A stretch of 64,000 bases of DNA from Geosiphon pyriformis uo1 (Eukaryota; Fungi; Glomeromycota), in the NCBI GenBank assembly GCA_016748015.1, contig JAAOMT010000230.1, forward strand, positions 124,001-188,000. Direction: 5' to 3'. The notes below the pieces were generated by a model that was not told the DNA's origin, did no database searches, and saw only the letters and a list, made by a program, of their open reading frames with translations. Made by a program: the position numbers and the translations under genes. Shown in pieces: positions 13,714-63,000 of the stretch; position 1 is the first letter of the stretch, and every line of letters starts with the position of its first letter.

Positions 13714-16700
13714 CTATGCAGCTATATAAACTGAAACTAAGTCACTTATACCTGAGAAAAACAAACAAAATTTGCGAAAGCCAAAACAAACACTAAAAGC
13801 ATCAGCAATACCAAGCAATTTGACCACTCCAGCTGACAACCCAGAAGCCAAACCAGAAACTGAGACAAGAACTGAACCATTAAGGGGAATCAACCCATTA
13901 TTCTCCATATATACACACTATTTAGCATGAACTGATTAGACACTACTTCTAAAATCAAGACTAAGAGAGTGCACAAATTTAACAATCTCCAAACCAGCAA
14001 CTTTTGGATCGTAAAAGATAGTGACTGCTTCGCAAAACCAGTCATTAAAAATGAAACTCTTATAAAGAGCCATGGCCAAAAAGGAGTCAGAAACACATAA
14101 AGACAACATTTGTAGTATGTCTGAAGAAGAATGAGAGAAACCAGAGATTGTCTTTCAGGAGTCCACATAGAATTTCAACAACTGATGTCAGACAGAGTCA
14201 TCAATCTTGTAAGAAAACACATGATCTGATGCCTCCATATTACCACAATATAAGCACAAAACACTTGAATACAGTCTATTATAAAGGCACTTCTGAACAG
14301 CAACTGGCAGCCAGTAGTGCAAAGTCTTTATGAAATAAGAGCAAGCATTAGCCGAGAGTCTACTGGTGAAACCAGCAGTCATGTGCAAGTCAGGGTGCCA
14401 AACCAAAGATGAACAGAGCCAGTCAATCTCAAAAAGCAAACTGCCTGCCAAAAACTTGGAATCAGAACCAACCTCCCAGTACACACAACAAACTGAATGA
14501 TAAATATCATGTACAAAATGTCTGGAATTGTCAGAAACCACACTACCATCAGCCACTATGAAGCATTTATCCAAGTGGTGAAGAAGATACCAACCAGAAA
14601 GAAAAGTATTACCAGCAATCGCATCAGTGCGCTCATTTTCTGAAATGTCAGAGTGGTCTTTAACTTTATGCCAGCTGATTTTCAAATTCTTATAGTAAAT
14701 AACATTGACAATATAATGACATTTGACTCAACACTAATTACAAAAGTTGGGACACACTAGACCTAATTCAGAATTACAGGCATTCAGAACAGATTGACTA
14801 TCCAAAAACAGTTTAACAGAGCTCAGTGGGAAAACACACTCCAGAGCCAGCGCAATAGCCTGCAATTCCACCAAAGTAGATAACATCAAACTTGACACAC
14901 TGATGCCCAAACCCAAATTAATGTCCTCAAAAAATGCAGCAGCACCAGCTCTACAACCAACTGTGTCCAGATTACTAAGAGACCCATCTATATACACTAA
15001 CAAACTATTAGCACCAACTTACAATAAACAATCACAGACAGAAACAAAATCACTAAATTCAAGAATGTTCAAAAAACCAACACCATCTGAAATTGAGGGA
15101 TGAGTAAAAAAGAAACCTTTATCATCAAGAAATGCAACAGAAAACTTGAACCACTCAGGAACAAGGCCACAGGGGTCTAATTTTTTCCAACACTTAAAGA
15201 TATGCCAATCAAAAACAGAACCACAATGATTATGAAGTTGATCCACAAAGGCAACATCATACTGTCAGAGAGAAGGAAAAAACCTGAGAAACTATAACTC
15301 ACCCAGAACAGTAAACATAGAAACCCCACCACAAAACCAAAAGGAATTGGCCAAAAAGCCACTTAAGGACAAACTGCAGTCAAAAAAAATGCAAACCATG
15401 CCCACTAGAAAGTTATTGGAAGAACTGACACAAATACACACAGGAGAACTCAATGGATAACAGGGTGCTAGCACAGAACCTGCAAGTTATGGGATCTATA
15501 AGAAAATAAATGTCTTAAAATGCCACCCAAATTTGCAAAACTAACAAGAAAGACCACTTTGCTCTCAGACTGAACTTGAAAGAAAAATTTCAAACCATAA
15601 AAAGAAGAGTGATGAATTGTATCACTAAGAAAATCAAGAAGTAGGCTGGATTTAAACTTTAATTCCCTATGAATCAAGGCATCCCATTTGTTATATGTAT
15701 CAATAGGAACAAAGTTGAACTGAGTCCTATAACTAACTATAAGATGAAAAACTGCCAACACTAAATATAAAAACTGTTTATCTGAGACAGCTTTTTTCAG
15801 GACCAGGTTGGTAAAAAAATGAATGTCTGAATTCACCTTCACCAAACTAGGCTTTAAGAGACCTTCAGTTGAGAGAAAAATACCTAAATATTGATGAAAT
15901 TTACCCTTTTTGGCTATAGAGATTGGCAAGCCACTGATAGAAAGAGAGAGAGCACTGACTTTGCAATTGATAAGAATGACCACTGTTTTGTCATTATTAA
16001 TAGAAATATTATTTATCCAAAAAAATTTACTTACAATATCTAGAATGTATTGAGTAGCTGCCTTACTACTACCAATCCAAATTGTATCATTAACAAAAGC
16101 ACTAGCAGCAAAAAAAGAAGAAAGCCCAGCCTGGAATTCAGCATGACCATTTCTTGAAATAAAATGAGAACTTAACCTATAACCATACATGCTTTTCTGT
16201 TTCTTGATTTTGTATAGTAGAGGATTATAAAATATACACCACAGAAGAAGAGAAAAAACCTCTCCTTGGTCCAAACTATCATGTACACAATAATCATTCA
16301 TCAGTCCAAAGTCCATCATCACCTTGTTGGTATGATTTTTATAAATACTACCAAAAAACCGAATAAACTTACTATACATCTTAATCCTAACCAAACTTTT
16401 CTTAAGATGTTCTCAGCTGACTGAATTGTATGCTTTCCGCATATCCTGCAAAACCAAACAAAGTTCTCAATTCTTTTTCAATACATCTTCAACCACTGAT
16501 CCAACCACAAAAATAGAAGACTGAGTTATTGTACCTTTTAAAACTAAAAAATTGTCCCCACGAAGAATGTCAAAAGAGCTGCATGCCAAAGAAATCCTAT
16601 CAGAAAGAATCTTGGGAAGAATCTTACAAGCTGTCTTAATTAAAGCAATAGGACAGATATTCATAAGAACACCTTCTCACTCATATGGTTTAGAAATCAT

Positions 16701-18400
16701 TAAGATTTAAGCTTCCAACTAAGGTCTGAGCACTGATTTAGAAGACAAACAAAAGTTCAAAAGCATTAAAAGCATATCCAGAATTGACCTGTCATAATGT
16801 TTTCAAAGCTTATTTGTAATACCTAAAAGACCAGCAGCTTTGCCATTAGGCAGATCAAAAATCACATTAAGCAGCTCATTAAGCTTAACTAAACACATTA
16901 CACCAGAAAAGGCTTCATCAAAAATGTAATCCAATGGCCGATATTGACAAGACCAAACATCAGTGACATCAGCAATCACACCATGCTTCTTGGTCCAATC
17001 CTCCATAATAATGTCCATCTTAGATTTAACTAAATCGAGCTCCAAAATAAGCTTGTCCTCTACAACCAAATGGTCCAGAACCACTTTGTGGAAAGAACAC
17101 TCCAAAACACTTCTGATAGTATAATCTTTATTCATCTCAAAGCTTTCCATTCTCTTATTTATAGCAGCTCTAATGTTAGTTTCTTTAGTTGTCAAAAATT
17201 CAACAAGCTTGAACATATGATAAGACTTTCTTATGCCAGAGAGAGTAGAATACACACAACTAGAGTTTGTACCAGAGTTAATAAGATTCTAAACAACTGA
17301 GGCTTTGACACTGTCCAAAGAGTCCCAGCACTTCATAAGAGAGACAAAACTACCAACATTGGTCTCATGAAAGGCCTTGACAATCTTTAAAACCAAAAGC
17401 TTCAACCTATGAAACTTCGAAGAAACTTTGATGAAAACACTATCAAAATCCTTGAACCATTTCTTACTAAATATCTTATTTGTAGAAAGAACCACTATTC
17501 TGCATAAAACATCCCACATGGCATTCAGATTTAAGAACTTGACAGTGGCAGCAAATTTGTTAAAGAGCATCTTAGCATTGGCCAATGTGGCATTTCTAAA
17601 ATTTTCCCATCTATTGTTATCAGCACCCTTGAAATCAAACTTTCAACAATTCTTATTAGCCTGCTTATAAAGAAAGTTTAACCACACATCCAAAAATCTA
17701 CCTAAACTTACTAACACAAAAACAGCTCGATGATTAGTATTAAAAAATTCACCAATATTACACACAATGCGATCTACCACAGCATTGACTAAGTTTACAG
17801 AAACAAACAAGAAATCTATAGTCTTAGCCATGTCCTGAAATTAGCCCATGTGGGCATCTTGACAAAAGAACTTCCACCCAAAAAATTAACCAAACCAAGA
17901 TCTAAACACCTCTTAAAACTAGCACACCTTTGGGAGCCATTCTTATTAAAGTCACCATTCAAAACCACAAATGAAGATTTATTAACTGCCTTTGTTATTA
18001 CAAAATTGACATCATTAGCCTGAGAGAAGCAAACAGCCAGAAATGTTTCAGTGTAGAGCCCTAAAATCGACACAAAAAGTTTATTTTTGAACAACAGCTT
18101 GACTGAAAGGAGCTGACCAAGCACTTCAGAAACCTTATAAACATGACGAACTAGAGAATTGTTCATAATAATTGCAACACCAGCACCAAGAAACCCCTTA
18201 TTCAACCCAAATGAAAAAACTTTGACCTTATCAAACTTATTCTTAATCTAGAGTTTACAACTAGACCTCAGCTTTGTCTCAGTAATTATTGAAACCAAAT
18301 TTCCAGAATCTCTATGCCAACGGATAATGTTCTCTTGCTTGGTGAGGACATTGATACCACGAACATTACACATTGTGAATTTCCAAACAAAATTACTTAT
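13714..18400 (-). pseudogene. LINE ORF2 (AP endonuclease, RT, RNase H, C-terminal CCHC), many stops
   Basis: CNVRG, ETKL, GDFN (endonuclease). PIALI, LDQGEVFS, AFVND (RT). YIDGS..VELQAIALAL..LDSQ (RNase H). CLYCGNMEASDH. Confidence 0.9.
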
Positions 18401-18663
18401 TGGGGAGAAAGAGAAGTAGATGATCCCAAACCAAAGCACAAATGATCCAATCTTTCCAAGACAAATTCAACTAACACCTCCAAAGCCACCATCTTGGATT
18501 CTAATCCATCCACCTTGGTGGTCAAAACTTTAGAACTACTTGAACTAAGGTTATCAATCAATTCTGCAACAACAACTGAGAGAGAGAGAAGAAAAGATGC
18601 CAGTGTACCATCTAGAGTCATTTTTGAATCCAAATTAGACACTACAAGCACAAGAACAATTGG

Positions 18664-19565
18664 TATTATAGATGATTATTTGGGATTTCAAATCAAATAA
18701 CAAATCTGTAACTTGGTGCTCAATATCTTGACAAGGCTGGTGACACTAGTATGTTGGTTGTATCTGAAGGTTTTTAGAGTTGAATTTTTTGTATAATGGA
18801 CAGAGATTTAATTGATGGTTTTATCTATAGCTTCTCGAAACTGTAGTTTTATCAAATTTCTTTCTTAGTGTAGTGGTCAGTAATCTTCCTGGTAAGCTAT
18901 CCTCAAATCTATGAGTGTTTTACCCTTGTTTTACAGGTCTTTTACCAGTCTCTATGACATCTGTATTTCAGTGCTTATTCCTTAATCAATTTTAGTAAAA
19001 CCAAAGAAATAACAAAAGAAATAAAGAAAATAAAAAAAGATAAAGAAATTAACAAAAAGCAATTACAAGTTAGTATCCCATCAATAGCCGTAATTAAAAG
19101 CTATTGTTCCAGTGTGGTTAAGTATCAATTACTATCAACATAAAGTATTGATAGTAAAGAGTGGATTGAGATAGTAAATAATTATTTATTAATATTTGTG
19201 ATTTAAAAAGTTGCTTAGATAAAATCTAAACAGAAAGGTTTTCTTTACTTTTTTTTTCTTTTTACTTCTAATGCTACCACTATATATACATAATTGATGT
19301 TCTACAAGATTGCTCATATTTCCGAGCAATATACTATGATTTTTTGAGCAATGCTTACATTGCTGAGTAATGTGCTCTAATTTTCTAATATTGCTCCATA
19401 TTGCTAAGCAATGTGCCATGTTTTCTAACATTGCTCCACATTGCTGAGCAATGTGCCATGATTTTTGACATTGCTCCACATTGCTGAGCAATGTGCTCAT
19501 GTGCTAAATACTATTCTCTTATTGGTCTGCTATTTTCCATATCTATTTTCTTTTTATGAGTAACA
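18664..19565 (-). repeat. 3' LTR of element A
   Basis: Direct repeat of 28015-28916, adjacent to the PPT. Confidence 0.95.
19309..19500. repeat. ~5 x ~40-bp tandem repeat in LTR A U3 containing the palindrome CACATTGCT-G-AGCAATGTG (also at 28660-28851)
   Basis: Directly visible units ATTGCTCCACATTGCTGAGCAATGTGCCATG..TTTCTAAC. Confidence 0.9.
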
Positions 19566-19583
19566 TTATCTCCTTCTTTAATA

Positions 19584-20213
19584 TTAAGCTTCATCAAAAT
19601 TTTTATTTTGAATTAATTTTAATACTTCTTTTTTAATTATTGTTTGTTTGACTCTGTTCTTCACATCTTCTACTTGTGTATTGTTTATTCTTCCCCATTG
19701 GTTAATAGTTATGGTTTCTATGTTAGAGTGTAACAATATTTTTGGATAGTTCTGAAATATGTTGTGTAGTTAATAAATTGTTCTTACATGTAGTGTTGAG
19801 TTTGTTTTTTTTCCAATAAATTCTTTAATTTGCTGTATTATATTTTGGTTAAATACTCTCTTGGATTTGTCAATATACAATTCCTGAATATTCAACTTTC
19901 GACCTAGCTGGTAGTAACAATATGATATTGGAAGTTGTTCTGTCCATTGCTTCCAATTTTTTTTTGTAAGCTTTTCAGTTGGTATCATAATAGGTATTTT
20001 TCCAAAAGTGTTCTTTACTTTTTCTACTATCTTATCTGACTAGTTTTTATCATTTTTTGGTGGTCACTAATATGGTGTATTCTTTGTCTTTCTTCTGGTG
20101 TTTTGATAGCAGATAGTTTGGTTATTAATAATAATTTCTATATTTAACTGTTGTTGACTTAAGACCTGAAACAATTGTTGAGCTATTGTGTAAATATGAT
20201 CTGGTATTTCCAT
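19584..20213 (-). pseudogene. Element A ORF3, unknown function, ~209 aa (MEIPDHIYTIAQQLF...NFDEA*)
   Basis: Single frame with only point stops. Protein-level homology to ORF3 of B and D. Confidence 0.7.
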
Positions 20214-20267: not shown

Positions 20268-21650
20268 TCAATTTGCCATGTTTGGTGTAATTATTATGAT
20301 TGGTTCCAGATCTCATGGAATCTCATCTGGTTGGACTATTATTTTCTGTACTCCTAATTATAGAATATTATTGGTAAATAGTAGTATTATATTGTGATAT
20401 GGTTTCAGTTGATCTCTATGTGCTGCTTTGGTCAAGATTTTGTTGTTCAATCTTAATTTATAAGCTCCATTTTCTAAAATTTCTTCTATGTGAAATGGTC
20501 TGTCCTATTTGGAATCAAATTTTCCACTCCATTGTTTTTCTGCTTTGGTATAATATAAAAGTACTTTGTCTCCAATCTTGAATTCAACTGGTTTGTTTGA
20601 TAGTTGATTATCATGTCTTTCTTTCTGTTTCTCTTGTGACTTTTGAATTTTATCAGCTGTTTTTTTTCATTTGTTTTCCAGTGTTTCTATTAAGTCATAT
20701 GTTCTTTTTAACAGTGTTTCCTGAAAATTTTCTTTTGTTATTGGTTCAGTTGGATATGTGTTAACTTCTATCTTAACTGGTATTGTTGCTGTTCTACCAT
20801 ATACTAATTCAAATGGTGTTGCTTGTATAGTATCTTGTTTCATTGTTCGATATGCAAATAATACTGATGATATGAACAAATCCCATTCATTCTGGTTTTC
20901 TTGGCTGAGTTTGGCAATTGCTTTACACAATGTTCTATTAAATCTTTCTACTAAATCATTTGTTTGTGGATGATATGGTAATGATAGTGGTCTTTTAATT
21001 CCGAATTTTTGGCTTAATTCTACTAGTGTTCTGTTCACAGAGTAAGTTCCTTGGTCTGATAATAATTCTTTTGGACATTCATGTCGACAAATCAGTTTTT
21101 GATAAACAAATTTGGCAATGGATTCTGCATCCGCTTTTTGAATTGCTTTTGCTTCTGGCCATTTAGTGAGATAGTCCATGGCTACTGCAATATATCTATT
21201 TCCTCTGCTGGTAATTGTTAATGGTCTGACTAAGTCAATTCCAATGTGATCAAATGGTTATCCCACTTTGATTGGTCTCAGTGGTTCACTGGGTTTTGTT
21301 CCTTCTTTTCTTTGACAAGAATCACAATTTTGAATATATTGGATGATGTTTGGATACATTGATGACCAATAGTATCTTTTTCTGGTTCTTTCTATGGTTG
21401 CTTCTTTGTGGAAATGTCCTGCTGTTGGATCTGAATGCATGTTGAACAGTATTGTTTTTTTCTCTGGTTCTGTAACTACTCTAGTTGGTTGATCTGAATT
21501 TTGTCTATTTTTTCAATAAAGTATGTTTTGGTGAGTGATAAAGTATTTTGATTGTTGTTTGATACTATTTCGTTCTGATTGAGATAATTTCTCCTTGAAC
21601 TGTTAAGTATCTATATAATATTTGAGTTGTTGGTATTTTTGTGTGTTCAT
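20268..21650 (-). pseudogene. Element A integrase (HHCC zinc finger, DDE core, GPY/F-type tail) as a stand-alone ORF
   Basis: Starts MNTQKYQQL. HSDPTAGH..CDSC, DYLTKWPEA, SDQGT, YHPQTNDLVERFN. Confidence 0.85.
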
Positions 21651-21711: not shown

Positions 21712-24700
21712 TTAGATTTGTCTTATTCATGACAAACCATCTGCATTTTCGTTGTCTTTTTCCTTTTTATAATGTATGGTATAAGTATATGGTGAGAGTA
21801 CTATTTTTCATCTGGATTGTTTGTTATCTCCAAATTCTTGTTTTTGGAGTGATGTCAGTCCTTTGTGATCTGTATACATCTCAAACTTCTGGCTTAAGTA
21901 TTCTTTCCATTTCATGACTGCCCAATAAATTGCTAAATGTTCTAGTTCTGGTGTTCCATAATTTCTTTTAGCTGAAGTTAAACCTCGGCTGACATATGTG
22001 ACTGGATGTTCTCTTCCATCTGGTCCTCTCTGTGATAGTATTGCTCCCAATGCTTGGCTTAATGTATCAGTGGTAATGATGAATAGTTTATTGTGATTTG
22101 GATAGATCAGTACTGGAGCTTGTATAAGTTTTCTTCTTAGAATATCAAAAGTTTCTTGTTGTGCTTCTGTCCATTCGTATTTTACATTCTTGGTTTGGAG
22201 ATGATTAAGTAGTTGGGCTATCTTAGAAAAGTTTTTGATGAAGCATCAATAATAGCCTGCAAATCCCAAGAATGATTTTAACTCTGTCATATTGATTGGT
22301 ACTGGAAAGTTCTTGACTACCTCTATCTTTTCTGGATCTGTTTTGATGCCATCTTTGCTTACTATGTGCCCTAAAAAGTTTAATTCTGTCTTGTCAAAGA
22401 AGCACTTATTGGCATTCAACTTTAGTCCTGCTCATCATAGTCTTTTAAACACTTGTTGTAGATGATGCAAATGATCATCGAATGTTTTGGAGAACACATT
22501 GGTGTTATCTAAATAAATGACTACTAATTTCCACAATAAGCCAGTATATACTATTTTTATTAGCTGTTAAAATATGGCTGGAGCATTTATCAAGCCGAAT
22601 GGCATGATTTCAAACTCGAAATTCCCTTCTCTCATCATAAAAGCTGTTTTTTCTTTGTCTGCTGGATTCATGGCTACCTGCCAGTATCCACTGTTTAGAT
22701 CCAGTATTGAGAACCATTTATTTTCTTCAAAAGCATTAAATAGCTCTTGGATTTGTGGAGTTGGATAGCTGTCTCCATGGGTGACTCCATTGAGTTTTCT
22801 GTAGTCCACACAAAATCTGATCTTTCCATTTTTATTCTGAATGAGTACTATTGGTAATGACCATGGGCTCATAGATGGCTGAATTAGCCTGTTGTTAAGC
22901 ATTTGGTTGATCTCTTAACAAATAATCTCATGGCTGGCTGGTGGTACTCTGTATGCTCATTGTTTGATTGGCATAGCATCTCCAGTCTTGATCTGGTGTT
23001 GGATGATATCAGTTCTGCCAAATTCGTTTTCACTAGTGAAGATGTCATTGAAGTTGTTGAGTAATATCTTGAGTTGCATATGTTGGAGTGGATCCAAATT
23101 TTCCATGTTCATTTGTTCCAATTGTTTTGATTGGAGCAAATAACATTTCTTTTGTCTATAGATTGTTTGTGATGTGATATTCACATATTCACATAGCTGT
23201 AGAAAGTCTGGAATAATGCTTGGTGGTTGATTTTCTAATTTAGTGTTTATGTATCCAATAAAAATTCCCTCTGGTATTGTAATGGCATCTCCTGTGGTGT
23301 TGTAAATAGGAATTTTGATATGGTTGTGGTTTTTGGCTGGTATGTGGAGATTGATGAGTCCAATCTCTCTTGATTTACAAAGGCTTGTTTCTGCTTCAAA
23401 AATCTGATCCTTATCTTTCACCTTTCTCTCTATAATTATCATGTACTGGTCATATGGTGGAATGGAAATTACTTGACCAGTTGAGATAATTTCTTCTTGG
23501 CCAATAATTTTTTCTTCTGCCATATTGACTGGTATGTCTATTCTATCCGTTGATCTAAATCCCTGTATCTCTCTCGCAGTAATTTCTAGTTCTTCCCTTT
23601 TTTTCATTAATACTAACTGAGCTATTTTTACTAAAGGTAGGAATATTGCCTGTGCTATCTTTTCATTTGGCTTTATGATATAGGCCTTTTCTAAGTTGTT
23701 TTGTAGCATGGCAATGATATTTCCCACATATTCCACGTCAATTATTCCTTTTCTTATATTAATCTCTCTTTTCACTAAACTACTTCTAAAAGCTAATTGA
23801 ACCATAGTTGTTGCTGGTATTTCCAATGCTATTTTCAGATCGATGCAGATGTGCAAATAGGGCTCTAATTTGATGGCATCTTTCTCTGGATACCTCAGAT
23901 CAAACCCGGCATCAGTATCATATGTATGTTCTGGCATGATCCCTTTCTCGTTATTGCTGAACCATTTCAAGATCTGTTCTTTGGTGAGATCAAAGAGCAC
24001 GATATATATTTCTGGGTTTGAATTGGAGTTCCAATTGCTGTTGTTTTTGTTGTCATTTTAAACGGAGCTGGCACCAGTGTTTTCATCATCATTATTGTCA
24101 GAGTTTGAATCAGGATTAAATGGTAATTCCGATTTTGATGCACAGCTGCTGATTGGTTTTTCTTCCTCCAGAATTGTGTAGATCATATATGGTGGTAGAT
24201 TGTAAATGAGGTCACAATTATCACAAAATTGGAAGTCACATGGAATTAAACAATGGTCACATAATTGGGTATTGATTTCCTCCAAACATTGTTCTTGCTC
24301 TTCTTTCGTGAGTGCTAGATTCTGATAGTGTTCATGGAATTCTTTTGGGCTGTTTTCTAAGTTAATAAAAGCGTCCGGGTTGAGAACCAAAACAATGTCT
24401 GTTGGTTCTGGAGAATTGTTTTTGATCTCCAGAATTTCACTGGGCAAAGCACTTTCTACTTTAGCATTGGCCATTTGCCAGATCTCATCTTCGTCATGTA
24501 GATAACCTTCTAAGTGAGAGATTGCTTGGTGCCAGGCTGCTATAATAGGTGTTCCACAACTCACTCAGTTGCTAATGAGGATCATGTATTGGCATGAAGT
24601 ATCACATGTTCCCCCTCAACCAGGAATGTTATGCCATATCCCTTTGTCAAGCAGTTGTTCTCCATAAGCGAGACATGGTTTATTGTCCCACTTGTCTTGT

Positions 24701-28014: not shown

Positions 28015-28916
28015 TGTTACAGGTAATTATTTGGGGTCTCAAATCAAATAACAAATCCATAACTTGGTGCTCAATATCTTGACAAAGCTGGTGATACTGG
28101 TATGTTGGTTGTATCTGAAGGTTTTTAGAGTTGAGTCTTTTGTATAATAGACAGAGAATTAATTGATAGTTTTATCTATAGCTTCTCGAAACTGTAGTTT
28201 CATCAAATTTCTTTCTCAGTGTGGTGGTCAGTAATCTTCCTGGTAAGCTATCCTCAAATCTATGAGTGTTTTACCCTTGTTTTACAGGTCTTTTACCAGT
28301 CTCTATCACATCTGTATTTCAGTGCTTATTCCTTAATCAATTTTAGTAAAACCAAAGAAATAACAAAAGAAATAAAAAAAATAAAAAAAGATAAAGAAAT
28401 TAACAAAAAGCAATTACAAGTTAGTATCCCATCAATAGCCATAATTAAAAGCTATTGTTCCAGTGTGGTTAAGTATCAATTACTATCAACATAAAGTATT
28501 GATAGTAAAGAGTGGATTGAGATAGTAAATAATTATTTATTAATATTTGTGATTTAAAAAGTTGCTTAGATAAAATCTAAACAGAAAGGTTTTCTTTACT
28601 TTTTTTTTCTTTTTACTTCTAATGCTACCACTATATATACATAATTGATGTTCTACAAGATTGCTCATATTTCCGAGCAATGTACTATGATTTTTTGAGC
28701 AATGCTTATATTGCTAAGTAATGTGCTCTAATTTTCTAATATTGCTCCATATTGCTAAGCAATGTGCCGTGTTTTCTAACATTGCTCCACATTGCTGAGC
28801 AATGTGCCATGATTTCTGACATTGCTCCACATTGCTGAGCAATGTGCTCATGTGCTAAATACTATTCTCTTATTGGTCTGCTATTTTCCATATCTATTTT
28901 CTTTTTATAAGTAACA
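28015..28916 (-). repeat. 5' LTR of element A
   Basis: Adjacent to the PBS; repeat of 18664-19565. Confidence 0.95.
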
Positions 28917-31099
28917 CTGGAGGAGAGACATGAGAATCAGACACCAAAAGCATTAATTTCACAAAACACAATTTTTCCATAATAGCTGAAACCTGGTCTA
29001 TCAAAAGCTCCAAAGAGTGTTCCAGAGAAACCAATTGATCAACCAAGCATAAATCACCAAGAAAGTCAGAAACCAGCAAGCCAGGTTTAGCACCTAAAGA
29101 TAATCCAGTACCAAAAAAACTCAATGAAACTACACAAGAAGGAAAACTGCTAGCAACCTGTGCCCAAGTCTTCCTGCCAAAAAAAACTGGGTAAACAATT
29201 GGTGTCTGTTTCTTCTTATATATGTTGGCCAAATAGACCTGATCCTAAGGAGTTACCATCTACTTACCACATGCACCAGAATTTCTATCCAATGAACACA
29301 CTATAGAGATATGACCCAATTGTTTACACTTGGCACAACAAGTCAGAAAAAGACCAGCCCAGTGCAAATTCACACCCTTATAAACTGAAATAGAACCAAT
29401 AGCAGCCAATTTGGATGCCTTATTCTCAAAACAAACCACTACACATCTATCACGTACATAAGAATTAGGATTATGACCAATAAAACAGGTCTTCTCACCA
29501 TATGATTCAAGTAAATCAGACAAATCGTGAGCAGTAGTATCAACTGGTAAAGTATAGAGCAAAGTCCTATGCTGATTTCTAAATACCCAAGATTGTTTAT
29601 TCTCAATTGTCAAGGCAACTTGCACAGAATTCTTTTCCATGAAAACTGACCACTTGGAAGCAACTGAATTAGCTACTTCAGATAATTCATATTCGACCAA
29701 AGCTTTTTGCCACATGCCAATCAATTGTATTTTGATTGACACAATCTTTCCAAACTTAGAAAACACAGATTTCACAGCCAATTTGGAAAGATCAATCGGA
29801 ATCTCCTTGATGATCACCTCCTAATTTGAACAGTTGTTTACCTTTCTTAAATCATTATTAACCATAATTTTTTCACACATTGCTAATTTCTTAGTTTTAT
29901 TCAGACTAGATTTGGATGTAAATGAAGATTTTATGATCTCTGGGAATTTTGAGGGAGTAAAAGCTCTTCCAAAATCATTAATTCTATAAAAAAAATTTTT
30001 GATTGAAATTAACTATCACCAACAAATTTACCAGATACTGCAGAAAGCTCAATATCAAGTACAAAAGATTTGGTCGAATTGAAACTACATGCATCCAGAG
30101 CATGTGACTCAGATGGTAGTGTTACCAGAGGTTTTTGGTCTTTTTTTAGCTCTTGTATGTTTGTTGTAATGCTGTTAATTCATGACTATGAAAAGTGTTT
30201 GAACCTCCGATAACTGAATTTTATCTACAAATTATCTCCTATAATTTGAACTGCTGGGCTTATAAGTGGAATGGCCAATTTCGTGCCAGTTGCTTTGTGT
30301 AGTTGCGTTGTAGTAAATGTCAACTCTTTCCCAGGAATTGCTTATTTGGAAGCTCACTAAAAATGTGTAGTTATTTTGCTGTAAAAGTTAACTCTTCTAC
30401 AGGAATCTTGTCTATAGACTACTCTAATGATTGTAATAAAAAAATACAAGAAAATAAAAAAAATGTAAAAGAAATAGAATTTTGTCAAGGAAAACGTTTT
30501 CTATCCAGGCCTGGAGTTACTAACAGATTACTGAAATTGGTAGCTAATCAATTTCAAAATGTTAGTTGTGTTGAGGGAATTTCAAGTGTAATAATTAAAG
30601 AATTTGGTTTTTCAAATTATTTGATATTTATTTCTTTTTGTGTGTGTAGGAATAATTCTAAGTGATAAATCTAAAGTAAGATACATTTTTTTGAAAAAAG
30701 AAGCTCTTCTTTTATACAACTTGTTGTAACACTATTTTATGAATTTGAACTTTGCTCTTTTCTACAATTTTGCTGAACTAAAAATACATTTCAGAAAACT
30801 ACAAGTTATTTCTGTGAACTATTAGATATTTTGGTAAACTATCAATTATTTCAATAAATTTCTACCAATTTTGGTGAACTTTTTAAATGTTACATAGTTT
30901 GGGGTATTGCATGATTGATCATTGCAATTAGATTACATTTATGTTATGTGCAAATTGGGTTATTAATTAAATGATAATTTTGGATATTTTGCTAATATAA
31001 TAAGTAATAATTTAAATGATAATATATGTTAATTAATGATAGGAGTTATAAAGATAATTTCATGCTAAATATTATCTCTAATTTTGTCTGGTAACATAA

Positions 31100-31784
31100 C
31101 CTCCTCCTCAAGACTGAGCTCCATCGAAGTCCAAGTACTGTCTGTAATTTCCAGATAATAATCCAAAATTATTGAAGAAATTTGGTCTGAAAATTGTTGA
31201 AATTTCAGTTCTGTGAGCTTTCCAATGTATTAAATCTTTAAAGGTTGTAAAATTGGGTTTTGTAGGACGTTTTCACAGGTGTGAAATAGGTCATAAAGTC
31301 TAAGAGCAGTTCTTAGTTTATAATGACTGTTTGTAGGTTCAGCTGTTGTCTTGAATTCATTGTGGAGTTGTTTCCAAATAGCTTTTTTTGTAAGATTTGC
31401 TGCTGTAAGCTCCCATTTTCATTTGTGAAGTGTTTTTCCAATGTAGAAATATCTATATATTGGAGTATAGTTATAGTTTTCTTCATTAAGACACAGTTGA
31501 AGTTTTTGTTGAATAGTAGCATTTGGTAGAATACTAATAAGAGTGAGCATTAAGTTTTCTCTTAAATCAAGCTTTAAAAGTTCTGGCAGGTGAATTCCAG
31601 AATAACTTCTTGTGTTCTTCTTATATGGGTGATATTTTCGTGAATTTGGGACTAAATTTGTAACTACTTCTGTTTGGGTATAATTAATGTGGTTTCCAGT
31701 AATAGTAATGGATAATTCGGGTATTGTTTTTAAAGCTAACATTAGTTTTTGGGATAATTGTTGAATGTTTTAAGGAATAGTCAT
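31100..31784 (-). pseudogene. Element B ORF3, unknown function (MTIP*NIQQLSQKL...)
   Basis: Single frame including ORF 31419-31742, running to the PPT. Shares YFYIG, LRLYDLF and IGKLT..F motifs with ORF3 of A and D. Confidence 0.65.
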
Positions 31785-31894
31785 TATAAGAGATTTGAAA
31801 ATAAAAGAAAATTATTTTTGGTGTATGAGTTTATATGTTATTTTTGCTTTGTTTTTGTGAGGTTGTTTCTAAATTATAAGGAGATAAATTTAAG

Positions 31895-33280
31895 TTAAGT
31901 GTTCAAGTTGGGAGGTTGTTCAATGACAACTATTGGTTCTAAATTTTGGAAAATATCTTCAGGATTAATTAAAGAGGAATGTGTACCAATTTGTAGAATT
32001 AATGGTTCAGGATTGTTTCTGGAATTATAGTGTTTCAAACGATCTTTATGTGCAACTTTTGCTAGGATTTTGTTATTAAGTCTTAGCTTGTATAATCTGT
32101 TGCCTAGAACTTCATGGATAAAGAATGGTCCATCCCATTTATTTTCAAATTTCTCATTCCATTGTTTTTCAGCTTTAGTTCTGTGTAAGAAAACTTTGTT
32201 TCCAATTTTAAATCCATTGATGACTGGAGGCAATTTGTTGTCATGCCATTTTTTTTGTTGAGCTTGGAAGTGTTCAATATGGGTGGCTGTTATTTGTCAT
32301 TTTCCTTCCAACGTGCTAAGCAGAGTGTAGACTTTTTGTTGAAGTGTTTCTTGGAAATTGTTTTTATCAATTGGTTGTGCTGAGTATGTTTCTACTATGA
32401 AACTAATTGGTAATGTTGCTGTCCTTCCATAAGTTAAATCAAATAGTGTGTGTTTTGTGGTATCTTGTTTTAATGTTTTGTATGCTAGTAACACTGATAG
32501 AATAAAGATATTCCATTCTTGCTCAAAATCGGTTGAGACTTTGGCTAATGACTCACACAGTGTTCTGTTAAAACATTCCACAAATCCATTTGTCTATAGA
32601 TGGTAGAGTGAAGACAGAAGTCTTTTGACATTGAATTGTTCACAGATTTCTTGAATTAGATTGTTCACAAAATGTGTTCCTTGATTAGATAAAAGTTTGA
32701 TTGGGCATCCATGTCTACAGATAATGTCTTTATAGATGAAATTTGCTATTGATTTTGCATCTGCTTGTTGAATAACTCTGGCTTCGGGCCATTTAGTGAG
32801 ATAGTTTATGGCTACTGCAATATAACAGTTTCTTTGGTTTGTGATAGGTAGTGGTCCAACTAAATTGATACCAACTCAGTCAAAAAACTGTCCAACTTTG
32901 ATTGGATTTAAAGGTTCTGTAGAGTGAGTTCCTCTTCTTCTTTGACAATTATCACAAGATCTAACGTATTCATGAATGTCTTTTCTCATTTGAGGCCAAA
33001 AGTAATATTTTAGTGTTCTCTGAATGGTGCTGTCTTTTCCTAAATGTGCTGATAAAGGATCTGAGTACATGTTATATAAAATGGTTTCTTTTTTATGTTC
33101 TTGTATTAATCTGAGCAAATTATCTGGGTTTCTGATGTTTTGATAATAAATAATGTTGTTATGTAAGAAGTATTGTTTGGCTTGTTGTTGTAACTAATAT
33201 TTTTCATCTGGGGACCAATCTGTTGGAATTGTTAATGTCTCCAGATATTGTTTAAGATTGTTGTAGTTTTCAAGGTTCAT
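31895..33280 (-). pseudogene. Element B integrase, stand-alone ORF
   Basis: Starts MNLENYNNL. SDPLSAH..CDNC, DDE core, WDGPF..YKL tail. Confidence 0.85.
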
Positions 33281-33326: not shown

Positions 33327-36300
33327 CTAATCTTGTCTCATTCTTGAAAGACAATCAACATTGGTATAGAGTTTTTCTGGTTTGTGGTGTACAATATATC
33401 AGTAGTTGGCTAAAAATCCTGTTCATCAGGTTTGTTTTGCATTCAGCTAAGTGTTTTTGTTCTGAAACCATTTAAGTCCAATATTATCAGTAATAATATC
33501 AAATTCTTTGGGTCTGAGGTAAAGGTTGAAGTAATGTAGGGCCCAGATTACTGCTGCTGTTTCTAGTTCTGTGGCAGGGTAGTTTTTTTTAGCTGGTTTT
33601 AATGTTCTGCTAGCATAAGCAATTACTCGCTCATTTCTATTGTCATCTAATTGTGATAAGATGATACCAAAAACAGTATAAGAAGCATCTGTAGCTAGTC
33701 AAAATTGGTTACTGAAGTCTGGGTAGGTGAGAATTGGAGCTGTTGTCAGCTTTTCTTTGAGAATTTCAAAAGCTTTTTAGTGTTCTTCTGTCCATTTGTA
33801 TTTGACATTTTTTTTAGTAGTGAGCTGGTTGAGAGGTTTTGCAATTTCTGAGAATTTTTTGATGAATTTTCGGTAATAGGATGCTAATCCAATAAATCCT
33901 CTCAATTCTGTGGTATTTCGTGGGGTCTTGAAGTTCTTAACAATGCTGATTTTTCTGGGGTCTGGTTTAATTCCATCTTTGTTCACAATGTGGTCAAAAA
34001 AGGCCAAACTTGTTTTTCCAAAGTAGTATTTTTCAATGTTCAGTTTCAATTCTGCTTTTTGTAATCGTTGAAAAACTTCTCACAGGTGTTTTAAGTGTAA
34101 TTCAAAAGATAGTGAATAAACATTAGTATCATTGAGATAGACAACTACTGATTTTCAAAGGAGGTTTTTGTAAACAACATCTATGAGTCTTTGGAATGTT
34201 GCTGATGCATTGCATAATCCGAAAGGCATTACGTTGAACTCGTAATTTCCTCCTTGAGTAGTGAATGCTGTTTTGGGACAATCTTTGGGATCCATGGCAA
34301 CTTGCCAGTATTCGCTTTCTAGATCTAGTGTTGAAAAGTATTTGGCCTTTCCAAAGGCATCCAACATATTATTAATTTGGGGAAGGGGATAGGCATCTCC
34401 AATGGTGACATTATTGAGTTGTCAATAATCAACACAAAATCATATCTTTCCATTTTTTTTTTTAACTAAGACCACAGATGAGGCCCATGGACTCATTGAT
34501 GATTGAATAAGCCCATTGTTGAGCATTCGTTGTACTTTTTTGCAGATAAATTTGTGGCTTTCTGGAGCAACTCGGTAGGCTTGCTGTTGCTTTGGTTTGG
34601 CATCTTTTGTATAGATTTGGTGTTGAACCAAATTGGTTCTTCCTAAGTCATTGTTGTTTTCGGCAAAGATATCAGCAAATTCTGCAATTAGCTTTTTAAG
34701 CTGGTTTTGTTGTTGTGGTTCAAGTTGTTCCATGTTGATTCGAAATAGTTTTTCCATAACAACATGGTAGTTTTCAGAGCTGGGGCTTGAGTTGATTTTT
34801 GGTAGTAAATGTCCAATAATTTCAGAGAAATTGGGACTGTTTGAGGTAATTCTTGTTGAAAGATGTTACTGTGAATGATTCCAATTTCTAAGTTATTTAA
34901 TAAAACAATAAGATAATTGTTGGGATTGTAAAAAGTAACTTGGACTTTTTTTGTTCCTTCTGGAATATAAATGTTTGGGATCGAGATATTATGTTCCAAG
35001 CAGACTTGTTCATTGGATTTAAAAATTTGTTGTGTGATTGTTGGCTTTGGGCAGATGTAGATTTCCGAATGTTCTCTAAAGAGTGAAATAGTAATTGGTT
35101 GTGGAAGTCGTAGAATCTAGTGAGATTTATTTTGTTCATTAAGAGCTATGTTTACTGGAACTGTAAATTGTCCAGTTGAACCAAAACCTTGGGTTCCTTT
35201 TTTATTTTTTTCTAATAGTTCTCTTTGATTGACTAATTGTAAACCCGAAATGTTGATTAAGGGTAAATAAATGGCTTGGGCAATTTTCTTGGCATGTTCA
35301 ATCTTAAACAGCTTGTCAGTTTCATTTTGGAGTATTACTGTTATGTTATCAGTATATCCAGCATCGATTATTCCTCCTCTAACATTGATTCCTTTGCTTG
35401 CCAGAGAGGACCGGGAGGCAATTTGAACCATTCCTCCTAATGAGATTTCGAGAGCAATTTTGAGGTTGATTTTTGTGAGAGATTTGGGTTTGAGAATGAG
35501 AGTATTCTTGTTTGAATATCTTAGGTCATATCCAGCATTAATTTCATGTGTTTTTTCAGGTTTTATTCCTTGTCTGTTGTTGTTAAAGTATTTGAGTTGT
35601 AAGGCAGAGTAATTTTCAATGAGATAGATGGGTGTTGTTTTAATTTTTTCTGTTGCTTCAGATTCACCAAATTTGATTTCATATTCGTCACTTTCACTGG
35701 GTAATGGAATGCTAAGGGCATAGCATTCAAGACACCATTGTTTGTTGCATGGCATTATACACTTCTCACATAATTTAATGTTCATTTGCTCTAATCATTG
35801 AATTTGAGCTTCTTGGGTCGGATAAGTGTGACTTGCAATTTGGTGGTATACTTTTACTTCATCTTCATCTTCATAATCAAATCCAGCTAATTCTAATGTA
35901 TATTCAATATATTCAGCTTCCTTTATTTGAAGGACATTTTCCTTGGCTCCTCCGTTAATTAAAACCATGGCAAGTTCATAGATCATTTCGGCATCATGGG
36001 GGTAGTGATAGAGTTTGCTGAGGGCACTGTTGTATGTGGCATTGAAAGATGTTTCACATTTTATCTTTTCTGCAATAGAAAGAGCATATTGGCAAGTTTG
36101 ATTGCAGATTCCTTCTTTAAATGCGACATCAATCCAGTCACATTCATTGGGAAGCTGCTTTCCACAAGTAAGACAGGGTGTTCTATTCCATTTTCCACTT
36201 CTTTTGATCAAGTGGCCCCATCATTCTCGATGGCAGGCCTTGTAGTAGTAGCAGGTATGACTTTCATATTCTTCCTCAGGTAAAATACAAGCTCCCATTG

Positions 36301-38953: not shown

Positions 38954-41834
38954 TTTGAAGTTGTTTTTGCTGTGTTGTTTCTGTGAGAGAGCACCAAATA
39001 TTACCGGAGGTTTTTGGTCTCTTCTTAGCTCTTGTATGTTTGTTGTAATGCTGTTAATTCATGACTATGGGAAGTGTTTGAACCTCTGATAACTGAATTT
39101 TATCTTCAAATTATCTCCTATAATTTGAACTGCTGGGCTTATAAGTGGAATGGCCAATTCTATACCAGTTGCTTTGTGTAGTTGCATTGTAGTAAATGTC
39201 AACTCTTTTCCAGAAATTGCTTGTCTGGAAGCTCACTAAAAATGTGTAGTTACTTTGCTGTAAAAGTCAACTCTTCTACAGGAATTTTGTCTGTAGACTA
39301 TCCTAATGATTGTAATAAAAAAATACAAGAAAATAAAAAAAATGTAAAAGAAATAGAATTCTGTCAAGGGAAACGTTTTTTATCCAGGCCTGGAGTCACT
39401 AACAGATTACTGAAATTGGTAGCTAATTAATTTCAAAATGTTAGTTGTGTCGAGGGAATTTCAAGTGTAATAATTAAAGAATTTGGTTTTTTGAATTATT
39501 TGATATTTATTTCTTTTTGTGTGTGTAGGAATGGTTCTAAGTAATAAATCTAAAATAAGATACATTTTCTCAAAGAGAGAAGCTCTTCTTTTATACAACT
39601 TGTCATAACACTATTTTGAACTTTGCTCTTTTCTACAATTTTGCTGAACTAAAGATACATTTCGGCAAACTACAAGTTATTTCTGTGAACTATTAGATAT
39701 TTCAGTGAACTATCAATTATTTTGGTGAATTTTTACCAATTTTGGCAAACTTTTTGAATGTTATATAGTTCGGGGTATTGCATGATTGATCATTACAATT
39801 AGATTATATTTATGTTATGTGCAAATTGGGTTATTAATTAAATGATAATTTTGAATATTTTGCTAATATAATAAGTGATAATTTAAACAATAATATATGC
39901 TAATTAATGATAGGAGTTATAAAGATAATTTCATGCTAAATATTATCTCTAATTTCGTCTGGTAACAGCGACATCTGATTGGATCTAGCTTTTATATATG
40001 GAGGAAACTCCAAAACACTATTATCATCACTTATATAATCAAATAAAGGCTGCTTTAGCAGATGGTCCAACATGTAAGTATAGGTTCAAGTCTTCCTGAG
40101 GGTAGTGTCATCTATATTCTTATATTCAACTGAAGCATCCAAATCTGCATAGCTCATTTCTTCTGCTACTGTGTTTTTCATGTTCTTAACATCAGAAAGA
40201 CCACTAACACTACTCGCAATACTACCCACCTTATTACTCCAAAACACTACAGATTTAACACCAGTGCCAACAAGGTGATTCATGCTCAAAGGGCTAATAG
40301 ATGAGTCAACAGTATCACTGGTGACAGGCTTCCTTGGCTTTTTATGAGACACACTATAGAAGTATACACTATTCACACAGTTTTTTTTTGCACTCAAACA
40401 AGTCTCCAAACCAGTCGAACCAGTGCTAAGCCCACCAGCAGATGTGCTTATTGGCTTTATCACAACAAATACAAGTATGCTTGAAGAAATAGCTGATAAG
40501 AACAAAGAGAAAGGAGAAAAGGAATACTACAGCTTCAAGAAAAAAAATTTTCACTCTCGTCGTGGTCAGGGAATTAACAAGAGAAAAAGTTTTTTCCTAA
40601 ATTATATTTTTAATTTAGAAAAAAAATATAAATATATAAAATAATATTATAATAAATTATATTAAAAAAAACTTTTTTTTTAAGAAAATATATCTTTTTT
40701 AGAAATTATTTTAGCTTAAAATAAATAAATAATTACTATAAATCAATTTAATAAATTCATAATTTAAAGTTTTTACTAATTATTGTTTAAAATTATAATT
40801 AATTTAATTATTAAAGATAATATTAAGATTTTTTATATAAAATTTATATTTTAAGATTTTTTAAATATTGTTATACAAAATAAACTTACCAATTTACTTT
40901 TTTTTACTTTAAAAATTGCAAAGTTTTTTATGGTTTTTGTTGATTTTTTTTCTTTTTTAGCTGTTGTTTTTTATGATGTTTTTTTTAATATTATTTTTAA
41001 TAATATTAAAATTGTCTTAAATGTTTTTAATAAAATTATTTTTATTAAGTTAAAGTTTATTAATTTGTAACTATATGCTATTTATTTTAAATTTTTTGTT
41101 ATTATTAATATTATTTTTGTTTGCTAATTTGTATTAATAAAAAAATATTATTAAACTTTTTTTAGTTATTTATCATAAAATTATTGTCTTTTAAAAAACT
41201 TTTAAAACTAAATTAATCAAATTTTTTCTAATTATATAGTTTTTAAAATTAGCAAATTGGTTTTTTAATTTAATAATTGTATTTGTTTTATTTATTTATT
41301 TTTTAATTCTATTTGACAATTATAATATATAATTATTATATTTGTTTTTAAAAAAATTTGAATATTATTATTATAAAAACTAGTATTTTAAAAAAGTATT
41401 ATATTTAATAAAAAACTTTTAAATATTAATACTATTTTAAATACCAAAAATTTAAATATTTGATTAGTGTTATTATTATTTTTTTTTAGGTTTTTTTTAA
41501 GTTTACTATTAGTTCTAAAATTTTTAATTTTTTTTATTAGTGTTAAATTTTATGTTAAAACTTTTATTCTATTAATTTTTTATTATTATTTTGTTAACTG
41601 TTTTTTTTGTTGTTATTATTGTTAATTTTATAATTAGTTTTTATTTGGTTTTTTTAAAATTTAATATGACTTATTTAATTTTATTAATTTTATTAATTAT
41701 TAAATTTATTGATATTTTAGTTTAATTAATTATTAAAATAATTAATATTTCTTTAAATTTAATTACAAAATTGAAAAATTTATGTTTTAATCTTTAAATT
41801 AAATTAAATAGCATTAATAAGTTTATAACTAAAT

Positions 41835-47866: not shown

Positions 47867-48196
47867 TGTTATAAGTAATTATTTAAAATATTAAAACAAA
47901 TAACAAACTTATAACTTAGTATTTAATAGCTGATAATATTGATAATTTCTAAAGGTTTTGGAATTTGAAAGTTTTGGTTAAGTTTTTTGTATAATGAACA
48001 GAGATTCAATTAATAATTTTTTCTGTGAATTTTTTTCTTTAGTGTGGTAGCAGATTTATTCTGACAGTTATGTCTTTTTAGTAAACTATCCTTAAATTTT
48101 TACCTTTATTTCTGGGTTTTTTACCAAGCTATCCTTAATATCAAATACTTAGTAATTAATTTCTTTAATTAATTAGTAAATAACAAAGAAATAAAA

Positions 48197-48274
<78 letters not shown>

Positions 48275-51200: not shown

Positions 51201-51525
51201 TAATAATAGATAATTTTATTAATATAGGAATGATTTTACTTCAAGTTATAAAAAACTATCTTTTAAAGAAAATAGTATTGTTCTAAATTAATTTAAACTC
51301 TATTGAATTCTCTTGAAATTATTTTTTCTGCTTTTAACATTTTTATTATATATATATAATTTATGTTATATAAGATTCCTGGAAATTCTGCAATTTTCCA
51401 AAAGAATTCTAGAATTCTGCAATTCTGCAATTTTTCAAGAAAATTCTGAAAATTCTTGTTTTATTACACTTATTTCTAATTGACTATTTACTTATTATTA
51501 TAATTCTTAATTTTTATAAGTAATA
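47867..51525 (-). mobile_element. Internally deleted non-autonomous Gypsy element C (A/D-related LTRs; retains Gag tail, protease and dUTPase start)
   Basis: LTRs at 47867-48683 and 50691-51525. Perfect TSD ACAG. PBS ~50678-50688 and PPT after 48683. Internal region only ~2.0 kb. Confidence 0.85.
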
Positions 51526-60084: not shown

Positions 60085-63000
60085 TGTTACAGATGATTAT
60101 TTGGAGTCTCAATTCAAATAACAAACCTGTAACTTGGTGCTCAATGACTAATTTGATAGATGATGGTGGTAATATTGATATGTTGTCTTTATCTGAAGGT
60201 TTTGATTGAGTCTTTTGTATAATAGACAGAGATTCAATATTGTCTTTCCAGTAACTTCCTGGAATCGCAATTCCATCAAATTTCTTTCTCAGCATGGTGG
60301 CTGGTAATCTGGCAGTAATCCCCTTCTGGTAAGCTAGCCATTAATATATATAATTTTTATATCCTTCCTTTGAGGTCTTTTACCAGGCTATTTTTGACAT
60401 TAATAACTCAGCACTTAATTTCAATCAATTAGTAACTCCAAAAGAAATAACAAAATAAAATAAAAAAGAAATAAAAGAAAATAAGAAAACAATTAAAAGC
60501 AATTGCAAATTAGTATCCTGTCAATAGTTATGATTAAGAGCTATTGTTCTAGTATGGTTAAATATTACTTACTATCAACATATAGTGTTGATAGTAGAGA
60601 GTGGATTAAGATAACAAATAGTTATTTATTGATGTGGAAGGTTGTTTAGAACAAATTTAAACTGAAAGGTCTGTCTTTTCTACTTTTAACACTACCACTA
60701 TATATACATAATTAAGATTCCTCAATTCCTCAATTCTTCATACTAGGAATCCTGGAATTCCTGGAATCCTGCAATTTTTTTTAAGAGGAATTTTGGAATT
60801 CTGGAATTCTGTGATTCCTTGTACAAGAATCCTAAGATTCCTAAAATCTTGCAATTCTTCTTGAGAGAAATTCTGGAATTCCACATTTACTATGGCTACT
60901 TTTGATTGGCTAATTTATATTCTAATATATTTCTTATATTCTATGAGTAACATTATTTCCTCCATTTTAATATTAAGCTTCATCAAGATCTCCCAAATCT
61001 TCTAGCTCTAATTTTCCATTATTGAGTAGTTCTTGGACTTTTTTTTCGAGAATTATTTGTGTTATTTTGTTTTGTAATTCTTCAAATTAGGCATTGGTTA
61101 TTTTTCCTATTTGGTTGACAGTAACAGTGTCCATTTCAGTGTTAAGCAAAATTTCTGGTCGATCTTAAAATCCAGTATATAGCCAATAAATAACTCTTGC
61201 TTGTATGGTTAAATTGTTTTTTCTCACAAATTGTTCCAGTTGTTGTAGTATTGTTGTATTGAATAATTGTTTTGTCTTATCCATATATAAATTCTGAATG
61301 TTCACATGTTGTTCTAAGTAAAAGTAACAAAAGTTTCTTGGAAATTGTTGTATCCACCAGTCTCAGGTTTTTATAGTCAACTCTTAATATTGGGTAACTT
61401 TGAGTTGTGTTTTTATTGCCAATTTTACTTTTGCCATTATTTTGTCAACAGTGTTTTCTGTTTTTCTTCATACTTTATCTCATAGTCTTTTTTTGGTGTT
61501 TGTATATCTGATAGTTTGTTGATTAATTGTGATTTCCATTTCTTGTTGTTGGATTAATTGAAAGAGTTGTTGTGCTAGTAAGTGAATGTTGTCGGTAATT
61601 TCTATTTTTCTGATGTCTTCTGTCATGTCTACTATGTCTTTATATACTCTTTCTATTGTTTAATTGTACATGTTTGGTCTAATGATTATGATTGGTTCCA
61701 GATCTCATGAAATCTTATCTGGTTGAACTAGTATTCTCTTTACTCCTAATTGTGGAATATTACTGGTAAATAGTAACACTATATAGTAATATGGTTTCAG
61801 TCAATTACTATGTGCTGCTTTGGCTAAAATTTTGTTGTTTTATCTTAATTTATAAGCTTCATTTCCAAGAATTTCTTCTATGTAAAATGGTCCATCTCAT
61901 TTGGGATCAAATTTTCCACTCCATTGTTTTTCCACTTTGGTACAATGTAGAAGTACTTTGTTTCCAATCTTGAATTCAACTGGTTTATCTGGTAGTTGGT
62001 TATCATGTCTTTTTTTTTGTTTTTCCTGTGACTTTTGGATGTTATTAGCTGCTTTTCGTTGTTTGTTTTCTAGTGTTTCCATCAAGTTATATGTTTTTTT
62101 CAACAATGTTTTCTGAAAATTGTCTTCAGTTATTGGTTCTGTTGAATAAGTGTTGATTTCTATCTCAACTGGTAATGTTGCTGTTCTACCGTATACCAAT
62201 TTAAATGGTATTGCTTGTGTGGTATTTTGCTTCATTGTCCGATAAGCAAATAGTACTGATAGTATGAACAAATCTCATTTGTCCTGGTTTTCTTGACTGA
62301 TTTTGGTAATTGCTTCACACAATGTTCTGTTAAACCTTTCAATTAACCCATTTGTTTGTGGATGGTATAGTGATGATAATGGTCTTTCGATTCCAAATCT
62401 TTAACTTAATTTTGCTAATGTTCTATTTACAAAGTGAGTTCTTTAATCAAATAATAATTTTTTTGGACATTCATATCAACAGATTAAATCTTGGTGGACA
62501 AATTCAGCAACAGATTCTGCATCTGCTCTTTGAATGGCTTTTGCTTCTGGCCATTTTGTGAGATAATCTATGGCTACTGCAATATATCTGTTGCCTCTGC
62601 TAGTGATTGTTAATGGTTCGACTAGATCAATTCCAATGCAGTCAAATGGTTGTCCTACTTTGATTGGTCTCAATGGTTTACTGGGTTTTGTTTCACCTCT
62701 TCTCTAACAAACATCACAATTTTGAACATATTAGATAATGTCTGGATATATAGATGGCCAATAATATCGTTTTCTGGTTCTTTTTATGGTTGCTTCTTTA
62801 TGAAAATGTCCTGCTGTTGGATCTGAGTGCATGTTGAATAATATTGTCTCTCTCTCTGGTTCTGTGACTACTCTGGTTGGTTGATTTGGCTTTCTTCTGT
62901 TCTTCTGGTAAAGTATATTTTAATGGTTGATAAAATATTTTGATTGTTGTTTTATGTTTCTTTGTTCCTTTTGAGATAATTTCTTCTTGAACAATTAAGT

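Follow-up and report, generated by a model that had tools for sequence, protein, structure and literature searches.

Three nested and decayed LTR retrotransposons of Geosiphon pyriformis, named A, B and D, carry a broken reading frame (ORF3) between integrase and the 3' LTR. They lie in the window, which is the whole 64,000-nt stretch of DNA analysed here. A preliminary description, made from the letters alone, had proposed that ORF3 encodes an accessory protein kept by selection and possibly fused to integrase in A and D. The locus raises the questions of whether ORF3 is a gene at all, whether it stands apart from integrase or forms its tail, and what a protein encoded in this position might do for the element.

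Host elements and the three ORF3 frames

The window consisted of nested, decayed LTR retrotransposons, with element D truncated by the window end. The host element of ORF3 showed the LTR pair, the polypurine tract (PPT) and the pol order protease, reverse transcriptase (RT), RNase H and integrase of Ty3/Gypsy (Table 1), and the integrases of both A and B contained H2C2, rve and Tf2-1-like SH3 domains, the SH3 match being weak. Pfam-type domain searches revealed no Chromo match in the integrases of A, B and the metagenome relative L001, nor in ORF3. Transitions accounted for 25 of the 27 differences within the LTR pair of A and for 63 of 65 within that of B, and CpG was depleted in the window (o/e 0.19-0.22). 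In A, B, D and L001, ORF3 lay in sense orientation after pol and before the 3' LTR, while the contig of a further relative, L002, ends before the LTR. A fourth copy of ORF3 was not found within the window.

Table 1. Features of elements A, B and D in window coordinates
Feature	Position (strand)	Details
3' LTR of A	18666..19565 (-)	97% identity to 5' LTR 28017-28916
Polypurine tract of A	19566..19577 (-)	immediately 3' of ORF3 stop
ORF3 of A	19578..20213 (-)	ATG at 20213; family stop TAA 19580-19578; five internal decay stops including that of 'DEA*'
Basic-X2-5-PY motif of A ORF3	20070..20090 (-)	in unstructured linker; candidate PY-type nuclear import signal
TATATAAA	20247..20254 (-)	41 nt 5' of A ORF3 start; identical in D (61646-61639); weak candidate for internal-promoter TATA box
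TGA ending integrase frame of A	20268..20270 (-)	54 nt 5' of ORF3 ATG
Integrase of A	20271..21599 (-)	H2C2, rve, Tf2-1-like SH3; without chromodomain
dUTPase domain of A	23548..23943 (-)	between protease and reverse transcriptase
3' LTR of B	30122..31096 (-)	92.5% identity to 5' LTR 39001-39967
ORF3 of B	31065..31784 (-)	239 codons; own ATG; three decay stops
Integrase stop and spacer of B	31785..31897 (-)	stop 31897-31895, then 110-nt non-coding spacer; TATAAA at 31835-31830
dUTPase domain of B	35171..35560 (-)	between protease and reverse transcriptase
3' LTR of D	60085..60952 (-)	GAATTCCA repeats in U3
ORF3 of D	60967..61605 (-)	start decayed to ATA
Junction of D	61660..61668 (-)	TAC at 61668-61666 (TAA in most D-like contigs); D's own TAA 61662-61660

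The three frames could be located where the preliminary description had placed them, with four internal stops in A, six in D and three in B. Each ORF3 frame held 4-8 stops including terminal ones, compared to 10-21 in the two other frames. At 12 of the 13 internal stop sites, most homologous models with a residue there carried Q, R, W or K, or the alignment was poor; Q or W was the commonest residue in homologues at all nine sites of D and B. The relatives of D ORF3 begin at the same point as D or ten codons upstream (61635). The 3' ends had to be revised. A and D had both been taken to end at DEA followed by a stop, but among 107 A/D-family models, 39 had the ending [AVT]QY and 8 stopped at the A; because the family ends two codons past DEA, the frames of A and D extend to 19578 and 60967. 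The two elements have a decay stop at one common site, and the shared stop therefore proves nothing by itself. Likewise, the frame of B does not end near 31100 as proposed earlier; it runs on through the PPT and 32 nt into the 3' LTR, as far as a TAG at 31067-31065.

Further features of the window were recorded. An A-related element at 47867-51525, with an LTR pair only 76% alike, had a shortened interior (gag and dUTPase-region remnants) and no ORF3 match. Scattered copies of a further repeat family, characterized by CCHC knuckles, were located at 29098-30071, 53468-54443, 15672-18546 and 54734-57609; this family is likely a non-LTR element, into whose copies A and B were apparently inserted. 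The U3 of the A LTRs (19306-19502 and 28692-28853) contained repeats of 40 nt that include a palindrome of 19 nt; two are perfect and two or three have decayed. They are candidate factor-binding sites. Four GAATTCCA repeats were present in the U3 of D (60700-60890), some of them of the type TTCnnGAA, which resembles heat-shock elements. Family-specific LTR palindromes, considered as binding sites, were evident in A, weak in D and absent in B.

Homology, distribution and persistence of ORF3

Comparison of the ORF3 proteins of A and D revealed 37% identity (E 6e-39), and B matched A and D weakly in pairwise comparison (E 0.004 and 1e-4, respectively). When the A/D and B profiles were compared by hhalign, the alignment began at the first residue and spanned 187 columns (Prob 94.5, E 7.4e-8). 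On 78 full-length B-family models, the A/D profile had a median score of 22 bits (scores from -4 to 31); the controls reached at most 9.7 bits (386 scored shuffles) and 4.0 bits (reversed sequences). The alignment of A, B and D claimed earlier is significant as profiles and against shuffles despite the weak pairwise scores of B, and the motifs quoted for it sit in aligned columns.

Database searches with D ORF3 yielded 97 matches (169 candidates), all of them hypothetical proteins of Geosiphon pyriformis; B ORF3 yielded 202 matches (284 candidates), the best 120 of which were all likewise hypothetical proteins of this species. When 1.84 billion representatives were searched with a profile, 117 matches (cluster representatives) were obtained, which included more Geosiphon lineages and distant proteins; 10 of the 117 were looked up, and seven belonged to Geosiphon and three were metagenome proteins. 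The family members comprise hundreds of G. pyriformis gene models and three metagenome proteins, and dozens of the B-family models have intact, indel-free, full-length frames. The phylogenetic tree separated B-type and A/D-type groups, with long branches and unsure placement. No relatives were found in phage records, and none of 360 pattern matches in prokaryote genomes was confirmed. ORF3 is a real gene family, of which A, B and D each hold one decayed copy. Many of the 'hypothetical protein' models P0004-P0230 represented either ORF3 itself or chimeras in which it is combined with gag, integrase or other repeats, the latter being joined through apparent false introns that skip stops.

Selection was evaluated between A and D, as the preliminary description had suggested. 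The dN/dS value of ORF3 was 0.46 (bootstrap 0.28-0.74) over 195 codons, and that of integrase was 0.27; differences by codon position were 0.41/0.27/0.44, with the second position changed least. The off-frame controls reached 0.57 and 0.69, and their intervals overlapped the value obtained in frame; the dN/dS test alone is therefore soft. Across A, B, D and L001, identity was 54-76% for integrase and 22-41% for ORF3, with the frame, length and position of ORF3 retained. Such persistence across lineages is the stronger argument for selection. Together, the profile match, the dN/dS value, the intact copy in L001 and the lack of a membrane segment bear out the earlier view of a non-Env accessory protein under selection.

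The junction between integrase and ORF3

In the window copies of A and D only, ORF3 lies in the same frame as pol behind one stop; this arrangement fails in B, as stated previously, and also in L001 and L002. The env-like ORF of Sirevirus-type elements is read in such a way, by read-through in the pol frame behind one leaky stop. For A and D, the junction stop had earlier been considered a possibly decayed sense codon. In D-like contigs, which come from one DNA run (probably the window's own sample) and are at least 80% alike to D, position 61666 carried a letter other than that of D in 27282 of 27500 depth units (99%; 71 contigs), a summed depth that is not a copy count, and the codon accordingly reads TAA. 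Position 61667 differed in 13% of the depth, and 61668 had no variant at the 8% threshold, though both of its neighbours were listed. With TAA at 61668-61666 in most contigs, the integrase of most D-like copies therefore ends two codons before the stop of D, and a decayed sense codon at the junction was not confirmed. The internal stops of D at 61089 and 61468 were read as sense in 82% of the depth (both were seen among the best 40 of 314 variant rows; D has six such stops).

The gene models could be examined for the same boundary. Among 107 A/D-family models, 39 started at MEI, 26 ten codons earlier and three farther upstream, among them the only one (P0088) that read from integrase into ORF3 without a stop. 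None of ten longer models had integrase in front, and all five short models that fuse the integrase tail to ORF3 skip the junction. The metagenome sequence L001 contained a near-intact RT-RNase H-integrase, a stop, a 316-nt spacer and an intact ORF3 of 230 codons, which differs in frame from integrase and ends inside the LTR. The corresponding spacer of L002 was 708 nt long. Because of the TAA in most D-like contigs and the spacers of 110, 316 and 708 nt in B, L001 and L002, ORF3 is normally a stand-alone gene; it is separate from integrase in most families. The proposed fusion may hold only for family A and for the P0088 type, since stops or spacers stand against it in B, L001, L002 and most D-like copies.

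The spacer of L002 also contained a 128-codon ORF (L002:425-811 (+)) with no Pfam match, possibly a fourth gene. In addition, CpG was not depleted in L002 (o/e 0.72, in a short sequence), unlike in the window and in L001 (about 0.2), which weakly suggests that its host differs in methylation.

Predicted protein, proposed role and known systems

The ORF3 proteins had pI values from 5.4 to 9.8. Their highest 19-residue Kyte-Doolittle mean was 0.27-1.29, and no transmembrane anchor or hydrophobic signal segment was present in the 11 proteins assessed, in agreement with the earlier observation that transmembrane segments and a chromodomain are absent. Structure prediction of the full-length protein gave a helix and a hairpin at low confidence, followed by a linker without structure (residues 39-66) and then by a helical core predicted with confidence; when folded alone, the core was predicted as all-helical, with about 130 residues (pLDDT 89.8, pTM 0.82). 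No confident match to a described Gypsy Env or ORF3 family, which would have counted against the preliminary description, was obtained: Pfam, PHROGs and PDB sequence searches gave no named family at threshold, and none of the 49 members matched an Env family among the Pfam families listed (best 25 of 42). The best PHROG was an unnamed family (10 of 49 members, E 4e-4). Foldseek revealed no match at E <= 0.001 in PDB or BFVD, and the VIA fold search of 48161 chains revealed none at Z >= 8, the best (Z 6.1) being a designed protein.

Below these thresholds, several leads could be noted. In VIA, the whole core was covered by the DNA-binding region of Spo0J (Z 5.6, rmsd 4.2, 91 aligned) and by KorB (Z 4.5, rmsd 4.6, 96 of 114 aligned); unrelated helical domains scored level with Spo0J. 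A PNPase helical domain (Z 5.8, 63 aligned) matched only the first half of the core, as did the coat of a filamentous virus (Z 5.2, 69 aligned). DUF1016_N (PF17761) was matched by three of 49 members (best E 0.028; 12.9 bits vs a cut-off of 32.8), and DUF3102 (PF11300) ranked 19th in Foldseek (E 2.2) and 21st in the Atlas (score 0.86). Both are helix-turn-helix-type families; they were considered as candidates after one weak DUF1016_N match and before the DUF3102 matches. These predictions suggest a sub-threshold helix-turn-helix-like likeness of the core. The top Atlas match was an unnamed 98-member Mucoromycota cluster, which may be the ORF3 family itself. The best named ones were Closter_coat (closterovirus coat; 0.93, 154/256 features) and Translat_reg (phage translation repressor; 0.89), both RNA binders. 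Closterovirus coat had no Pfam match to ORF3 and was absent among the fold matches listed. A profile test for homology to ParB was negative: the score against nine ParB/KorB proteins (10.7) fell inside 40 column shuffles (8.1-20.3), and KorB alone gave E 0.42.

Translation of an ORF that lies 3' of a stop is inefficient on genomic RNA, and ORF3 would therefore need a shorter RNA. TATAWA was present upstream of ORF3 at 41 nt in A and D, 51 nt in B and 62 nt in L002, with none in that range in L001; the match was noted post hoc and has a chance of 0.10-0.20 per element. A splice acceptor 5' of ORF3 was considered and rejected, since B, L001 and L002 had pyrimidine-rich stretches without an AG directly before the start. 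Over the last 40 integrase codons (20280-20399 vs 61672-61791), A and D differed at only three third positions, compared to about 4-5 per 20 codons elsewhere; in this small, post hoc sample, the conserved end may hide a cis element for ORF3 expression. The linker was basic (7-12 K/R in 13 of 14 proteins) and, where pLDDT fell below 50, contained a motif that corresponds to the PY-type nuclear import consensus R/H/K-X2-5-PY given in the available text of PMC2408616. It was found in seven of ten lineage representatives (A, B1, B2, C, E, P0261 and P0275) and in L002, counts which represent one conserved motif and not independent events (chance 0.02-0.05 per protein). The motif was lacking in the representatives D, D2 and P0323, and 49 of the 107 B-family models did not carry it either.

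Based on these signs, which are weak but convergent, we tentatively read ORF3, at a little less than an even chance, as the conserved and mostly integrase-separate third gene of a dUTPase-bearing Gypsy clade, whose soluble helical product is likely nuclear and likely a DNA-binding regulator of the element that encodes it. ORF3 would be translated from a shorter RNA, possibly begun at the TATA box 40-60 nt upstream, and the basic PY motif would allow import of the protein into the nucleus, a step for which PY-type signals use karyopherin beta-2. There, the predicted helix-turn-helix-like core may bind the LTR of the element, which could then be switched on or shielded from methylation silencing. 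The fuller version, in which this fungal clade encodes a sequence-specific nuclear regulator of prokaryote- or phage-type helix-turn-helix origin, expressed from an internal promoter and binding the LTR against methylation silencing, is unlikely as a whole.

The same gene may instead encode an RNA-binding protein that coats, exports or translationally controls genomic RNA and may shuttle via the nucleus, a reading with a minor but appreciable chance of being correct. The PY motif is compatible with shuttling RNA-binding proteins, and the named Atlas matches as well as the PNPase and virus-coat folds point to RNA. However, Atlas scores of at least 0.9 arise in 4-10 of 100 shuffles, just one of the ten best named matches shares the family, and the VIA matches do not extend past the first half of the core. 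It is quite unlikely that the protein acts by protein contact only, blocking a host silencing factor or serving as an integrase cofactor in trans. ORF3 diverges far faster than integrase, like proteins in conflict with a host, and the host genome of the elements shows strong CpG loss and transition decay. The available text of PMC13547354 further ascribes more predicted host contacts to accessory proteins than to core enzymes. Against protein contact, the weak fold and family leads are mostly nucleic-acid-binding domains.

In a different explanation, the integrase of the A/D lineage has, or once had, ORF3 as its C-terminal end, joined through fusion or read-through of the stop, and this tail directs integration in the manner of a chromodomain. 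The shared frame and identical spacing in A and D, the read-through in P0088, the single junction stop of A and the missing chromodomain agree with this. The explanation is nevertheless very unlikely, considering the early TAA of most D-like contigs (with two internal stops of D mostly sense in the same depth), the gene models that lack integrase or skip the junction, the spacers of 110-708 nt and an integrase-ORF3 linker with dN/dS of 0.93, on only 18 codons. The evidence leans, weakly, toward a nuclear nucleic-acid-binding regulator over an integrase-borne domain. That the frames are non-coding leftovers, alike by chance or neutral descent, would fit the three broken copies of the window and the soft dN/dS control, but it is hardly credible given the intact full-length frames in B-family models and L001, the full-length homology between lineages at 22-41% identity and the confident predicted fold.

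ORF3 is apparently an undescribed accessory gene family. No paper listed by full-text searches of mainly open-access literature described it in its title or the start of its abstract. Several hundred 'hypothetical protein' models of G. pyriformis are transposon parts and not host genes. According to the available text of PMC11952901, LTR sequences make up 41.2% of this genome, and ORF3 bears on the broader question of why some lineages expand LTR elements so far under heavy silencing. A small, soluble, well-folding protein common to several abundant families, with an intact copy in L001, makes retrotransposon-borne regulators or anti-silencers testable in fungi. If ORF3 were an LTR-binding anti-silencing regulator, a fungal retrotransposon would carry a transactivator of the retroviral type, which might partly account for the expansion of LTR elements in Geosiphon.

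In Ty3/Gypsy elements, additional ORFs located between pol and the 3' LTR have been described before (PMC7264820, PMC5408684, PMC11963269, PMC2864245). The aORF-3S sense ORFs (PMC7264820) share with ORF3 the position, the orientation, many copies in several families and no known function; they are, as far as described there, env-like with transmembrane segments, whereas the fungal ORF3 encodes a soluble protein and reaches up to or into the PPT. Retand TRP28 and Grande GENE23 (PMC11963269, PMC7264820) are also pol-3' LTR ORFs proposed to encode nuclear or DNA-binding regulators of the element, but in the available accounts they are antisense, plant-specific and TRP28-bearing, while ORF3 is sense with no such Pfam match. 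The ORF3s of bdelloid rotifer LTR elements (PMC5408684) are similarly non-Env and occur in dUTPase-bearing Gypsy-like lineages; those described in the accessible text encode GDSL esterases, DEDDy exonucleases or membrane proteins, and the fungal ORF3 matches none of these families. The helical core has a weak resemblance in fold or features to ParB/Spo0J/KorB, DUF3102 and DUF1016_N, which is sub-threshold throughout, and the N-terminal domain of ParB proteins is absent from ORF3. Fungal dUTPase-bearing Gypsy elements (PMC2864245) resemble A and B in the dUTPase between protease and RT; some are drawn with an 'add. ORF' of unknown function (Figure 3 of that paper), likened to ORF3 by description only, and Glomeromycotina are not among the entries considered of its survey table. 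Foamy virus Tas/Bel (PMC7828637), as presented in the available text, is a functional analogy: an accessory ORF before the 3' LTR with an internal promoter and a role in transcription regulation, although it is retroviral and lies behind env, and both the promoter and transactivation would be conjectural for ORF3. As far as these sources extend, sense pol-3' LTR ORFs have so far been env-like or enzymes, and the proposed DNA binders have been antisense and from plants.
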